Shown in pieces: positions 21,808-28,603 of a DNA stretch of 64,000 bases (position 1 is the first letter of the stretch; each line of letters begins with the position of its first letter). The notes below the pieces were generated by a model that was not told the DNA's origin, did not search any database, and was given only the letters and a program-made list of their open reading frames with translations. The stretch is taken from contig JAGSHN010000023.1 of assembly GCA_029855935.1 (NCBI GenBank), forward strand, positions 1 to 64,000. Direction: 5' to 3'. The DNA comes from Candidatus Thorarchaeota archaeon (lineage in GTDB: Archaea > Asgardarchaeota > Thorarchaeia > Thorarchaeales > Thorarchaeaceae). The translations under genes were made by a program, and so were the position numbers.

Positions 21808-23280
21808 TCAGGCACCAAGACTGAGGATATCATTGGTGAGGAAGCTGTCGCGCAGGGAGAGGAGTCTGTCAACGATGAGCCCATTCTCGGTGTTGACCCG
21901 GAAAGACAGCGCGGATGAGGTCCTACGACTCTGCAGATAGAGTATCAGTCTCAGATTTCGGAGTGTCTCCAGAGTGGGTCCGGGGACGGGGTAGAGATCC
22001 GACCTCCTTACCCGCTCATATCGGCGCCGTGTACTCGCCACAAGATTCGAGGCCCCTCTCTCAATCTGGTTGGCCGTCCTAGCTCCCAGCAGCTCGTCGG
22101 CAATCCGATATCTCTGTGGGTCCATCTCCACAAGATAGTCATCACGAAGAAAGGCAAGCGCGAGGTAGTCGAGAACTGTGAGCATGGGGCCACCTATCTC
22201 AAGTTTGGCGGTATCAGAATGCCCCTGCCTGAAGTATGACGTTATCGCTCCCCGGAGATCTGGCGCCACATCAGCAAGGACAAGCACTTCTCTGACAGAC
22301 AGCGACTGAACAAAATCACGCACCTCTCTCTTGAGCTTCTTGAATCTCTCCAGCAGGCGTAGCCGATTGGCCACCTCAGAGTAGACGTGTCTCTGGTACG
22401 ATGAGGCAAGCGCATTCTCGTAGAAGTCTACCCGCACAGAATACTTGAGAGGATTGAGCGAATAATAGAGGGACTGAAGGAGATCACGGACCTTCACCAT
22501 AGACGAGTCCCCACTGGTGCGGAGAAGATTCCAGATGGCAGGAATGGAGTTCCTGTGAGCAAAGGCTAGTAAGGCCGCGTCAGTGACCCGTCTCTCAAAC
22601 TCTCGGGATATATGGGGTCGTATGACTATGCTCATAGTGTGCAGCCCCGGGAAGGACACCTCAATCTTTGAGAACGGCTCAGCCCCGGCCGCCACCTTGG
22701 TTCGATGGGCAAACACTTCGACTCTCTCGGTGGGAGAGAACCTCCGGCCTACTCTCAGACGCCCGACGAACAACAGTTTCTCAATGGATCGCTTGACCAG
22801 TCGAAGACGGGAGTTGAACTCACTATGCAGAGTTCCCAGCCAAGACTCATCCACCAGATACGGACCATTCGGAGAGATCTGGAGTCGGTACTCTGCGAAG
22901 AGGGAAGGATAGAGACGAACAGACCACACCAGATCAAAGTGCTCTGCGCCGACGGTGTCGTGTTGGATCTTCTTGGCCACGAGCGGCATCGGCATTCTAT
23001 ATGAGACATAGTAGTCATCACATATGACTCGGTAGTGAAGAGATCTGCACAGGTTTCGCCCTCGGAGAGGCCACCTCAGCCTCCCGACGCCGTGTACGAA
23101 TAGTCGCTCGTCGAGTCTGGCCGTGCCTCGAAGCACCCCTTCAAACTTCCTCCACAGTCGTTCCCGCCATCCGAGAAACGACAGCTCAGGCCGGAGACGT
23201 TCTCGCTCAAGGACCATCTCAGGCAATGCGATTGAGGCTGAGAGTACTACCCTCTGTCGATCCCTAGGGTCCAAAGTCAT
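21808..23280 (-). CDS. Hypothetical basic (Arg-rich) protein, 490 aa, no recognisable family
   Basis: Long ORF overlapping the upstream wHTH gene by 17 nt (translational coupling). Confidence 0.8.
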   Translation of the reverse strand: MTLDPRDRQRVVLSASIALPEMVLERERLRPELSFLGWRERLWRKFEGVLRGTARLDERLFVHGVGRLRWPLRGRNLCRSLHYRVICDDYYVSYRMPMPLVAKKIQHDTVGAEHFDLVWSVRLYPSLFAEYRLQISPNGPYLVDESWLGTLHSEFNSRLRLVKRSIEKLLFVGRLRVGRRFSPTERVEVFAHRTKVAAGAEPFSKIEVSFPGLHTMSIVIRPHISREFERRVTDAALLAFAHRNSIPAIWNLLRTSGDSSMVKVRDLLQSLYYSLNPLKYSVRVDFYENALASSYQRHVYSEVANRLRLLERFKKLKREVRDFVQSLSVREVLVLADVAPDLRGAITSYFRQGHSDTAKLEIGGPMLTVLDYLALAFLRDDYLVEMDPQRYRIADELLGARTANQIERGASNLVASTRRRYERVRRSDLYPVPGPTLETLRNLRLILYLQSRRTSSALSFRVNTENGLIVDRLLSLRDSFLTNDILSLGA

Positions 23281-24796
23281 CTGTCATCACACGCCACTTT
23301 CCCTCGTCTGCATCCCAACGGGAAACGGGCAGCTTCCATCCGAAGAGATGATAGCTTCCGTGATAGCTGAGCAGGCAGTCTTCTTCCTGAAACTTCATTC
23401 GCACGTCCTCAAATATCCATCTGGCATATTGGGCCGGGACCTTGGCGATGACCGTGCTGAGGCCGTTCGTTGCTCTCTGACAGTAGAGCTCAGGCAGGAA
23501 GGAGAGAGCCCGACAGATGCGCCGATAGAGTGAGACGTCGCTGTTGTGAATGACGAGGAAGAGCGAACCGGGAGCGTAGACGGTGGTAGCAACCACCCTC
23601 TCCCACAGGATACCCCTTGAGCGTAGGTCGGCCACGATTCCCAACACGGTATTATACTTCCGGCCGACCTTCCGCCTTATGTCCCTCACCGAGGTCAGAC
23701 CTTTGTTCAGGATGGCATCGATGACGGCCAGATAGCTCTCGTCCAGCACGAAGCCCTCAAGGTCGAGCTGGCGTCCAGTCAACTGCACAGGCGGCGGGTT
23801 CTCGAACGCGTCCTGTAGTCTCCTATGGAATGTCTCAAAGACCGCCCACTGCGAACCGTCAAACAGGTCATAGTCGATATTCGCCCAGCATAGGCTCTCG
23901 TCCCGCTCCCCCGCGGTGACTCTCACGACCCCCGGTGCGTCGGCAAGGCTCTCAAGCCACATCCTGCCCTCTCTGAACGGTGACCACCAGCGCGGTACAA
24001 CTATGTTCACAAGGGCAAAGCTCTCCCCGGTTGATGTCCGAAGGACGTTGTAGAGCCAGGGATTCTGTTTCCCTAGATATGGAGGCAGGCGCGTCGAGTG
24101 ATCCTCAAGCTCAAGAGCCATTATGACCGTCTTCAGCCCGATGCCCGCATACGAGACAGTCGGTATCGTCCACAGGACTCCCCGCCGTCGGAGGTTGTTC
24201 AGTACTCTTGAGACATAGCCCTTGGAGGTCCCGAGCCGAGCCGCAAGCCTCTGCGGCGAGACTGTCTGGTACGCGAGTGCGGTGCGAAATACCAGAAGGG
24301 TGCTCTGGGATAGTGTCGGAACGCGCTCAGACCGGAACTCAAACAGGTCTTGAATGAACAGTTCCCTGAAGGCAGGCCCAGCCTCCTCAATTCGCCTCTG
24401 ATACATCTCGCGCATCCTGTCGAACGCATCTCGAAATCCAAGGAGAGAACGATATACGAATGGTGGGCGATAGACGCGGCCATCGCCGTAGTCGCGTTCG
24501 CGAGAGGTCGCGGCCCACAGCTCCTCCCACCGACCAAGATCGCACTCGGGAAGTGCAAGCAACTCGGACAGCATCTGCTCAGTCCGGAAGCACACAAGAT
24601 CCCACGCAATGGTTCCCGGATACGCGCCCATCTCACGGGCGAGCTCACCTGCGGCCTCGGCGACCGCCTGAATCTCTAGCCGCTTCTCGGGCCAGATGTC
24701 GACAAGCGAGCTCACCATATCCTCAATGGCCATACGTTTGAACGGGGCCCCCGCACGAATCGGAATTCCCGTCCTTGGTTCGTCGCCAGCGGGCAT
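23264..24796 (-). CDS. Tandem Lrp/AsnC-like winged-helix regulator (two HTH + RAM-like modules)
   Basis: HTH1 SPQRLAARLGTSKGYVSRVLNNLRRRGVL followed by Lrp-type linker VSYAGIGL; HTH2 LDESYLAVIDAIL...SVRDIRRKVGRKYNTVLGIVADLRSRGIL. Confidence 0.75.
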   Translation of the reverse strand: MPAGDEPRTGIPIRAGAPFKRMAIEDMVSSLVDIWPEKRLEIQAVAEAAGELAREMGAYPGTIAWDLVCFRTEQMLSELLALPECDLGRWEELWAATSRERDYGDGRVYRPPFVYRSLLGFRDAFDRMREMYQRRIEEAGPAFRELFIQDLFEFRSERVPTLSQSTLLVFRTALAYQTVSPQRLAARLGTSKGYVSRVLNNLRRRGVLWTIPTVSYAGIGLKTVIMALELEDHSTRLPPYLGKQNPWLYNVLRTSTGESFALVNIVVPRWWSPFREGRMWLESLADAPGVVRVTAGERDESLCWANIDYDLFDGSQWAVFETFHRRLQDAFENPPPVQLTGRQLDLEGFVLDESYLAVIDAILNKGLTSVRDIRRKVGRKYNTVLGIVADLRSRGILWERVVATTVYAPGSLFLVIHNSDVSLYRRICRALSFLPELYCQRATNGLSTVIAKVPAQYARWIFEDVRMKFQEEDCLLSYHGSYHLFGWKLPVSRWDADEGKWRVMTDDFGP

Positions 24797-24926
24797 TTTC
24801 CTGTTCGTATTGTGGAAGGAGGGGCCTATTACATCTTCTGATTCTCGACGGACTAGCTAATCGAATTCCCGGGCCAGTGGTTGTCGGGCGACATTGGTCG
24901 TCCACAACAGAACGGAGGTGAATGGA

Positions 24927-24974
24927 GTGAATCCAGGAGATCCTTGGCCAATTCCTCCGTGGCGCCCGGCGTAA
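24927..24974 (+). CDS. Putative 15-aa Pro/Trp-rich peptide MNPGDPWPIPPWRPA
   Basis: Perfect SD GGAGGTGA (24914-24921), GTG start 5 nt later, TAA stop, then a hairpin + T12 terminator. Below the ORF-track cutoff. Confidence 0.5.
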   Translation: MNPGDPWPIPPWRPA

Positions 24975-24993
24975 GAACCGGCGTTGGCGGAGC

Positions 24994-25045
24994 GTCGAGG
25001 GACAGCACCCCGGCTGGCCCCGACATCTCTCTCTTTTTTTTTTTT
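24994..25045 (+). terminator. Hairpin + poly-T terminator
   Basis: GTCG-A-GGG-A-CAGC/GCTG-G-CCC-CGAC stem (24994-25024), followed by TCTCTCTC and 12 T (25034-25045). Confidence 0.65.
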
Positions 25046-25061
25046 CTGAGTCTCGGCGCAG

Positions 25062-25198: not shown

Positions 25199-25319
25199 GC
25201 GCGTATTTCAGTATTGCGAGAACACCGATCCGAGGCCCTCCCTGCACCTCTTGCAAGTATGAATTGAGAATCGCCCTCAGTACGGCGGACGGAGAGTCCT
25301 AGGTGACCGGACCACTATG

Positions 25320-27739: not shown

Positions 27740-28603
27740 TCACCCTTCATTCATGTCTGCAAGATCAATGACTGCATTCACGAATCTCGATATGTCATCG
27801 AGTTCCTCATCGATGAGCTTGAACACAAGGGCATTGTCAATCCTCGAATACAGGTGCACAAGCCTGTGACGAAAGCGAACCATCGACATCATTCTTCGTG
27901 CCAAGTCCTCGTCAATCAGTCCTCTGTCGCGAAGAATCTGAAAGATATCAACATAGCTTGTTGGTCTGCCCAGCTTCCTTGCTGACACCAAGTGGCCCGC
28001 CATATCGATGCACGACTCTATTGCGAGATGAAGAGCTCGCTCTGCCATCAACCGGGTCTCCAGTGAGGCGAAGTACGCATTCAAACCCCCCTCCCTGACG
28101 CGCGTGAGTACGTCCAGTGCCTGCTCTGTGATGGAGATTCCTGAAACCAGCATATCTGGATCAATCATCCTTCGCAGCCGCCCAGCAAAGCGTCGGACCA
28201 TATGCCTATCGTACATCATCCAGATGCGCTGCATCTCATCATACTCGTCCCACGTACGACGCTCGAATTCTGCTCTCAACATAGGATCCCGGTCAAGAAA
28301 GAGGATGCCACGTCTCACGACGTTGTTTCTGAGCGCCACGTCGGCGTGGTTCAGACACACGACGTCAATCCGCGAAGAGCCGAGGGCCTCTGATATGCGG
28401 ATTGTGAGTTCCCTTGTCATCTGCAGGCAGACATCTGGAGAAGAGTCGTTCAGGAGAATGGCGACGTCTATGTCACTCATCGGTGTTGCTTCGCCGGACG
28501 CAACCGACCCGAACAGATAGGCCGCCGTCACTCTCTCCTCGCGCCCAAGCACCCTCTTGATAACAGCGAGTATCCATTCTACCTCCGATAGCATCACTAG
28601 CAA
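27740..28603 (-). CDS. Fused MNT nucleotidyltransferase - HEPN/DUF86 protein
   Basis: N-half LFGS-VASGEATPMS-DID; C-half ERALHLAIESCIDM...RHRLVHLY, in one 287-aa frame. Confidence 0.85.
   Translation of the reverse strand: MLVMLSEVEWILAVIKRVLGREERVTAAYLFGSVASGEATPMSDIDVAILLNDSSPDVCLQMTRELTIRISEALGSSRIDVVCLNHADVALRNNVVRRGILFLDRDPMLRAEFERRTWDEYDEMQRIWMMYDRHMVRRFAGRLRRMIDPDMLVSGISITEQALDVLTRVREGGLNAYFASLETRLMAERALHLAIESCIDMAGHLVSARKLGRPTSYVDIFQILRDRGLIDEDLARRMMSMVRFRHRLVHLYSRIDNALVFKLIDEELDDISRFVNAVIDLADMNEG

Follow-up and report, generated by a model that had tools for sequence, protein, structure and literature searches.

The 15-codon Pro/Trp reading frame described here is, to judge from its codon pattern in eight genomes, a real and conserved small gene of Thor-type Asgard archaea. 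It adjoins CRISPR-cas genes in five relatives of its own subfamily (type I-D in four, type III in one) and in five loci of a second subfamily, an adjacency that is absent in the window and its genus-mates. As to how such a gene might act, the reading that we favour, with somewhat less than even confidence, is that of a stalling RNA, dependent on translation, under the control of the regulator beside it and similar in kind to the CreT RNAs of CRISPR-Cas loci; its main rival holds that the peptide itself is the product.

Anatomy of the micro-gene

Within the window, by which we mean the whole 64,000-nt stretch of DNA analysed here, the micro-gene is situated in a 506-bp spacer and runs divergently from a two-gene operon, fam0-fam1 (Table 1). 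The genome is an archaeal metagenome-assembled one with a non-acidic proteome. A sequence-only reading of this DNA had proposed a self-contained mini-transcript made up of a 5' hairpin, a Shine-Dalgarno sequence (SD), a GTG...TAA frame, a 3' hairpin and a run of 12 T; all five elements are present as listed in Table 1, and the proposal is supported both by this anatomy and by conservation of the reading frame in relatives. Taken as a whole, the 181-nt stretch has a fold barely more stable than those of its shuffles (z -1.6). The T12 tract is the longest homopolymer of the 2.97-Mb genome, in which only nine runs of at least 8 occur, and it probably serves as a terminator, because oligo-T termination is established in archaea. 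The perfect 8-mer SD has 154 copies on both strands, and since only 24 of these precede an ORF of at least 100 aa (11-19 for control words), it is rare at real starts in this genome, whose 16S rRNA 3' end has the matching CCUCC tail. At L016 (G000:C23), around positions 1255-1290, the 16S rRNA 3' end apparently carries a ~30-nt insertion, …GGATGGA-AGCCCACAAGGGCACCTTGCGGGCCATCA-ATCACCTCCT, which separates the conserved GGATGGA/helix-45 region from the anti-SD tail. The 5' hairpin probably lies at the 5' end of the transcript. On the side of the operon, CCTATTAT/C is found in all three loci compared (window, L031 and L032), about 30 nt before the start of fam0. A search of sequencing runs for the stretch matched no RNA run, its sole match being a hydrothermal-vent DNA run.

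Table 1. Features of the window and micro-gene peptides of both subfamilies (positions without a locus name refer to the window)
Feature	Position	Strand	Description
fam1	21808-23280	-	orphan protein of 490 aa, basic (pI 10); encoded second in the operon
fam0	23264-24796	-	510-aa regulator; N-terminal helical domain and two Lrp/AsnC-like units (wHTH plus RAM-type beta-alpha-beta domain)
TATA-like box, fam0 operon	24825-24832	-	CCTATTAC (minus-strand GTAATAGG); likely, putative promoter element
Promoter/operator-like motif of the micro-gene	24852-24870	+	ACTAGCTAATCGAATTCCC, family consensus AATTAGCTAAGGGAGTT; putative function
5' hairpin	24880-24908	+	12 pairs, -15.8 kcal/mol; 0/300 shuffles equally stable
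SD	24914-24921	+	GGAGGTGA, 8 nt, 5 nt before GTG; perfect complement of 16S 3' end
Micro-ORF	24927-24974	+	GTG start, TAA stop, 15 codons, (M)NPGDPWPIPPWRPA
3' hairpin	24994-25024	+	-17.9 kcal/mol; 0.3% of shuffles equally stable; ends 9 nt before T12
T12 oligo-T tract	25034-25045	+	putative archaeal-type terminator
Subfamily 1 peptide	G002		MTANPGDPYPIPPWVPDGPRA
Subfamily 1 peptide	G014		MHNPPGDPSPVPPWC
Subfamily 1 peptide	G010		MYRPPDDPSPIPPF
Subfamily 1 peptide	G012		MQRPPDDPFPIPPWD
Subfamily 1 peptide	G015		TTG start, YHPPDDPHPIPPW
Subfamily 1 peptide	G043		MALSSPPGDPHPIPPW
Subfamily 1 peptide	G019		MVSCPPNDPMPIPPW
Subfamily 2 peptide	L149:4219-4263	+	MVTLHPPEDPEWPW
Subfamily 2 peptide	~L150:16258-16329	-	M(TM)FAVVFDPEDPDWPW
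Subfamily 2 peptide	~L152:2570-2627	+	MIESSWPPEDPDWPWSPF
Subfamily 2 peptide	~L154:14535-14606	-	MYVVVFDPEDPDWPW
Subfamily 2 peptide	~L155:11150-11200	-	MFAQVWPPQEPEWPW

Conservation of the reading frame

When the intergenic DNA was compared by blastn with 40 relatives, no homologue was found, homology being visible only at the level of the peptide and its motifs; relatives of the spacer were hence sought upstream of fam0 homologues (28-45% identical). Every fam0 locus with enough sequence has the same cassette, consisting of a promoter-like motif, GGAGGTGA, a frame of 13-21 codons, one or more hairpins and a T-run, and this cassette recurs in seven other Thorarchaeota genomes with the peptide core P-P-x-D-P-x-P-[IV]-P-P-W. 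Short Pro/Trp-rich frames that follow an SD and diverge from homologous regulators, for which the sequence-only reading had suggested a search, are thus found in relatives. The SD, start and stop of the micro-ORF are preserved in all eight genomes, with an SD of 7-8 nt lying 4-7 nt before the start in seven of the eight loci (1-4 nt in G019). Within the core, Asp, Ile/Val and Trp are conserved alongside Pro, and the residues around it, 2-6 at the N-terminus and 0, 1, 3 or 7 after the Trp, vary.

The frame is judged to be coding because third codon positions vary across the eight genomes and first and second positions are mostly kept: of the 11 codons of the core, 4, 4 and 11 have variable columns at positions 1, 2 and 3, respectively. 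Pairwise codon differences, the check proposed at the outset, are likewise of the coding type, with 147 synonymous vs 71 non-synonymous in frame, compared with 8-20 vs ~200 in most other frames, and the choice among synonymous Pro codons drifts freely. The antisense Gly-rich frame, the only one to share the wobble positions, was rejected on account of stops in four loci. It had also been allowed that homologous regions might retain the base-pairing and lose the frame, or retain neither; what is conserved is the reading frame itself.

The family is narrowly distributed. A degenerate DNA pattern for D-P-x-P-[IV]-P-P-W gave a single match per genome in 7 of the 86 family genomes and none in a sample of 314 further genomes of the phylum; reversed controls likewise gave none. 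In a scan of all GTDB species representatives, the form with an SD and a short ORF occurred only at the Thorarchaeota loci, the rest being chance matches in bacteria, and exact-pattern scans yielded no new family members among metagenome contigs and no copies with an SD and a short ORF among viral contigs. Bacterial matches of the type DPxPVPPWEWRK were rejected as relatives, their likeness having been selected by the search pattern. Small bacterial frames ending in ..DPxPVPPWEWR[KR].. (L131:1539-2117, L057, L102, L115 and L136) resemble the C-terminal motif of one locus's staphylococcal-nuclease (SNase) homologue, or remnants of genes of this kind.

RNA elements and pairing of the Shine-Dalgarno sequence

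Two hairpins after the stop codon are common to five relatives and show compensatory changes in 8 of 15 pairs. A covariance model of this 3' element, run against the 86 genomes, matched no more than once in any genome, and exclusively at the five loci used to build it. The window and its genus-mate G002 (L031) have different 3' hairpins, together with an extra 5' hairpin between promoter and SD; where the window has its 5' hairpin, L031 has a different one, and the relatives with short leaders have none. CTCTC and a T-run follow the ORF in all relatives whose contig reaches far enough. Upstream, each of five relatives has one copy of the consensus AATTAGCTAAGGGAGTT (at most 4 mismatches) at its locus. 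Counted from the start codon, this copy lies at -47 to -50, or at -78 if a 5' hairpin has been inserted; the window copy is too diverged for a scan at this threshold and was positioned by alignment. Such spacing would fit an archaeal promoter or operator with the transcript starting just before the hairpin. Hairpin 2 of the 3' element was considered as a degenerate CRISPR repeat and rejected, since from locus to locus it shows no covariation with the cognate repeat. Rfam covariance models found no match in the window region at E values up to 1 and, in six relatives, only a sub-threshold DUF805b elsewhere. About 200 nt beyond T12, at 25243-25280, the window contains a 38-nt non-coding motif, TCTTGCAAGTAT..ATTGAGAATCGCCC, which is 87% identical to the apparently intergenic L002:1501-1538 of another genus (G009).

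Is the SD designed to be occluded, as had been claimed from the complementarity of ACGGAGG (24912-24918) to CCTCCGT (24954-24960) inside the ORF? The complementarity is exact, and in all seven homologues the SD is predicted to be mostly paired (probability of being unpaired 0.13-0.27). However, shuffled flanks give the same values, the pairing partner varies from locus to locus, the ACGGAGG/CCTCCGT pairing is not conserved among homologues, and in the fold predicted for the window the main partner of the SD is the CUCUCU tract. Because the partner differs, shuffled flanks do equally well and the composition of Pro codons (CCN CCN) itself resembles an anti-SD, the pairing is not evidence of design, and this part of the sequence-only reading falls. 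It also bears on the view that the locus yields a non-coding RNA whose open frame is incidental, or a hydrophobic type I toxin controlled by an antisense RNA, which could draw on the conserved hairpins and on the SD-ORF complementarity in the window. We regard this view as hardly credible: the codon-position pattern, being that of a protein-coding gene with its SD, start and stop kept throughout, largely refutes it, the SD pairing is not above chance, and the Pro/Asp/Trp-rich peptide is without the hydrophobic stretch of the type I toxin that had been suggested.

The partner operon

The micro-gene is divergent from a ~500-aa fam0 gene, followed by a ~490-aa fam1 gene, in seven of the eight loci; fam1 adjoins fam0 in seven loci, and the micro-gene of G019 has neither beside it. 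In fam0, Pfam matches to MarR_2/TrmB/HVO_A0114 cover residues 161-207 and 350-409, and the wHTH resembles that of Csa3/CasR. Its AF2 model (pLDDT 79) has as best Foldseek match NirDL, a fused Lrp/AsnC pair (E 4.6e-8), followed by many further Lrp/AsnC regulators at a probability of 1.0. A search for related loci with fam0 in metagenome and genome collections found nothing. Its partner is an orphan: fam1 has no Pfam, NCBIfam or PADLOC match and only 38 clusters among 1.84 billion representatives, its AF2 model (pLDDT 74) shows neither a fold match nor a recognisable catalytic fold, and a search for homologous proteins returned only fam1 itself. The Protein Atlas gave no usable match. Elsewhere in the window, positions 27740-28603 (minus strand) encode one polypeptide that, according to Pfam, combines a nucleotidyltransferase (Polbeta/NTP_transf_2) with a HEPN RNase domain of the HepT-like kind, i.e. 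a fused MNT-HEPN toxin-antitoxin-like gene.

CRISPR-Cas context

The sequence-only reading had missed both the partnership with the regulator and the CRISPR-Cas setting. In G014, G010, G012 and G015, the first two genes of a complete type I-D operon are fam0 and fam1, ahead of Cas10d, Csc2, Csc1, Cas3', Cas6 and then Cas4-Cas2-Cas1, and a CRISPR array in either orientation lies 0.3-1.2 kb beyond the micro-gene. In G019, it is a type III operon (Cas10/Cmr2, RAMPs) that runs divergently from the micro-gene and its 3' element. In the window, G001 and G002, which represent three species of one genus, fam0 and fam1 are kept with no cas genes after fam1; the micro-gene is present in the window and in G002, and the G001 contig ends before its position. 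The stable partner of the micro-gene is the regulator operon, the CRISPR link being frequent and not obligatory, and the persistence of fam0, fam1 and the micro-gene without adjacent cas genes fits a repressor-toxin addiction pair. Neither Csc2 nor Cas10d was detected in the window's 97%-complete assembly; Csc2 is found in 15 of the 86 family genomes. Elsewhere in this assembly, beyond the window, one contig end carries a large CRISPR array (G000:C20:34-5962) whose type I-D-style repeat, …GCCTCAGCTAAGAGGATTGAAAG, is identical to that of G014; either its effector genes failed to assemble or it is an orphan array.

The nearby arrays invite the thought that the micro-ORF is a cis-acting leader or attenuator, in which ribosome pausing would control read-through into the downstream DNA, for example the CRISPR array. 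A stall-type motif followed by hairpins and a T-run, with arrays 0.3-1.2 kb downstream in relatives, is what such a device might look like. Similarly, arrest peptides (TnaC, SecM, MifM), and polyproline stalling relieved by EF-P/aIF5A, share with the micro-ORF a short frame with a conserved C-proximal Pro/Trp/Asp motif and variable sequence before and after it. Arrest peptides, however, regulate a downstream gene in cis, whereas the micro-ORF is followed by its own terminator and by content that is variable or inverted, with no consistent gene. The array is inverted relative to the micro-gene in two loci and its distance varies four-fold, the window has no array after the micro-gene, and hairpin 1 begins 27-104 nt after the stop codon, outside the footprint of a stalled ribosome, all of which makes this explanation very improbable.

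Another explanation is a canonical CreTA module, in which the CreT promoter would be silenced by Cascade together with a crRNA-like CreA encoded by a nearby degenerate mini-array. The micro-gene has a CreT-like build, it lies in cas loci in several relatives, and in two relatives, G002 and G019, mini-arrays of two repeats with one spacer each (L031:7069-7164 and L033:10404-10498, respectively) are located 0.27-1 kb downstream of it. The match of the L031 and L033 spacers to the promoter is at chance level, however, with 846/1000 and 895/1000 shuffles doing as well, and in L032, L034, L035 and L036 no 14-nt repeat tail was found between fam0 and the array start at up to 4 mismatches, a threshold that highly degenerate repeats could escape. 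Moreover, the gene is intact in the window genome, where Csc2 and Cas10d were not found. We consider this canonical form improbable.

A second subfamily beside Csa3-like regulators

Five other type I-D loci, with the gene order array-cas1-2-4-cas10d-csc2-csc1-cas3'-cas6-csa1, contain a related frame with the consensus ..[PD]PEDP[DE]WPW (one reads PPQEPEWPW). Each is divergent from a gene for a Csa3-like CARF-wHTH protein, after which comes a distant fam0-like gene, and each is followed by a T-run, with a hairpin before the T-run evident in at least three loci. An obvious SD is missing in four of the five copies, and most of these ORFs may be leaderless.

Is it, then, the peptide that acts? As the main rival to a stalling RNA, we consider that the acidic Pro/Trp micropeptide might bind the neighbouring regulators or a Cas complex and tune cas expression as an intracellular co-regulator, its candidate targets being the RAM-type ligand domains of fam0, fam1 and the CARF domain of the Csa3-like protein. 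This is a possibility of some substance, if a doubtful one. It could explain why residues other than Pro (D, I/V, W) are conserved in two subfamilies, why the micro-gene is strictly paired head to head with ligand-type regulators (the tandem Lrp/AsnC-like fam0 and, in subfamily 2, CARF-wHTH proteins), and why the trio of micro-gene, fam0 and fam1 persists without adjacent cas genes. Yet the known ligands of Lrp/AsnC RAM domains are single amino acids and those of CARF domains are cyclic oligoadenylates, neither of them peptides, and the G019 copy stands without an adjoining fam0 or fam1. There is also a formal likeness to Rgg/SHP and other RRNPP quorum systems, where a tiny peptide gene is divergent from its presumed cognate transcription factor; unlike in those systems, the peptide here is neither hydrophobic nor secreted and has no exporter, and the partner is Lrp/AsnC-like or Csa3-like rather than a TPR-type regulator.

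The same juxtaposition of a small Pro/Trp peptide with a regulator and an uncharacterised protein could suggest a secreted signal or RiPP precursor that is modified (perhaps by fam1), exported and sensed. The sequence-only reading had listed a signalling peptide or RiPP-like precursor, and here it finds little to build on, as no modifying enzyme, exporter or signal sequence is apparent (Pfam) in fam0, fam1 or the short ORFs downstream. The peptide has only 13-21 residues and no signal or leader segment, Pfam families of modifying enzymes, proteases or transporters are absent from the neighbours scanned, the AF2 model of fam1 reveals no catalytic fold that could be recognised (it might still be a new enzyme), and the partner gene differs between the subfamilies (fam1 vs a Csa3-like gene). 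This, too, strikes us as improbable.

A proposed CreT-like stalling RNA

According to the stalling-RNA reading, the micro-gene would be expressed as an independent plus-strand transcript of ~170 nt, from about 24877 to 25046, which would combine a very strong ribosome-binding site, the 15-codon frame, in which ..DP.PIPPW contains two proline-stall motifs, a hairpin for stability and a terminator of the oligo-T type. The divergent regulator, presumably fam0 given its position, would control the shared intergenic promoter. Upon de-repression, the heavily translated Pro-Pro-Trp frame may stall ribosomes or tie up aIF5A or tRNA and so slow growth, which is where any toxicity would lie. PPW and PPG/PPD are known EF-P/aIF5A-dependent motifs, and the conserved core is a run of such motifs (PP[GDN]D, PPW). 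That they are conserved between variable N-termini and tails is what would be predicted for a nascent-chain arrest motif; the conserved Asp, Ile/Val and Trp also fit a functional peptide, and the four subfamily 2 copies without an obvious SD count against stalling. The suggestion of a stalling or small-toxin gene contained in the sequence-only reading is in this respect its best-fitting part, as distinct from the type I toxin and the cis-acting leader, which fit poorly.

In Pseudomonas aeruginosa, the 'proline-codon' CreT of the type I-F CreTA1/2 modules blocks translation and requires two Pro codons before the stop, an SD and a hairpin (bioRxiv 10.64898/2026.06.02.729485). As in that case, the micro-gene is a small RNA gene, situated in CRISPR-cas loci in several relatives, whose mini-ORF is preceded by a canonical SD and followed by a hairpin for stability, and the key codons are consecutive prolines near the stop (bioRxiv 10.64898/2026.06.02.729485); the full creT-type anatomy, critical codons of the mini-ORF included, is thus present. 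By analogy of build, CreT of this type is the closest known thing to the micro-gene. The differences are nevertheless considerable. Whereas the P. aeruginosa mini-ORF has 15 nt, the archaeal frame has 13-21 codons and an 11-residue conserved core, which includes Asp, Ile/Val and Trp and exceeds the needs of a mechanism based on two Pro codons. Unlike P. aeruginosa CreT, moreover, the micro-gene is paired with a protein regulator operon, a CreA guide or Cascade target site not having been found, the cas loci to which it is linked, in Asgard archaea, are of types I-D and III rather than I-F, and it is retained where no adjacent cas genes remain. An archaeal precedent is provided by haloarchaeal type I-B CreTA, whose tRNA-sequestering CreT has consecutive rare Arg or Ile codons and is flanked by a degenerate mini-CRISPR (PMC8501985, PMC9458426); it, too, is an RNA with an SD, a mini-ORF and a hairpin, and it is carried inside cas loci, but in the micro-gene synonymous Pro codons drift freely and no matching mini-CRISPR accompanies it. 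Because no CreA half was found and the gene is intact where no Cascade genes were found, we propose a version of the CreT-like 'proline-codon' RNA in which a protein repressor would take the place of the CreA/Cascade guide.

Both main readings could meet in a broader scheme, which we put forward as speculative and rather doubtful at present. The micropeptide, or the act of translating it, might switch cas operons or trigger dormancy together with Lrp/AsnC-like and Csa3-like regulators, its translation serving perhaps as a read-out of aIF5A, proline or translation status; the Thor lineage of Asgard archaea would then possess a peptide-based CRISPR-Cas circuit built on an undescribed class of genes.

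Implications

No Rfam or Pfam family and no description of this gene in the literature was found. Genes of such size escape gene callers, which is why the family is absent from cas-gene catalogues, even though its linkage to CRISPR regulators is as tight as that of many named accessory genes. If the micro-gene is a stalling RNA under a protein repressor, it would carry the CreT idea, that of tiny toxic RNAs by which immunity guards itself, into the Asgard archaea, into systems of types I-D and III and into a mode of control that needs no guide. If, instead, the peptide acts as a ligand, CRISPR-Cas would have its first micropeptide regulator. On either reading, fam0 and fam1, two uncharacterised proteins of Asgard archaea, become approachable through a gene that is short and easy to synthesise and to mutate.
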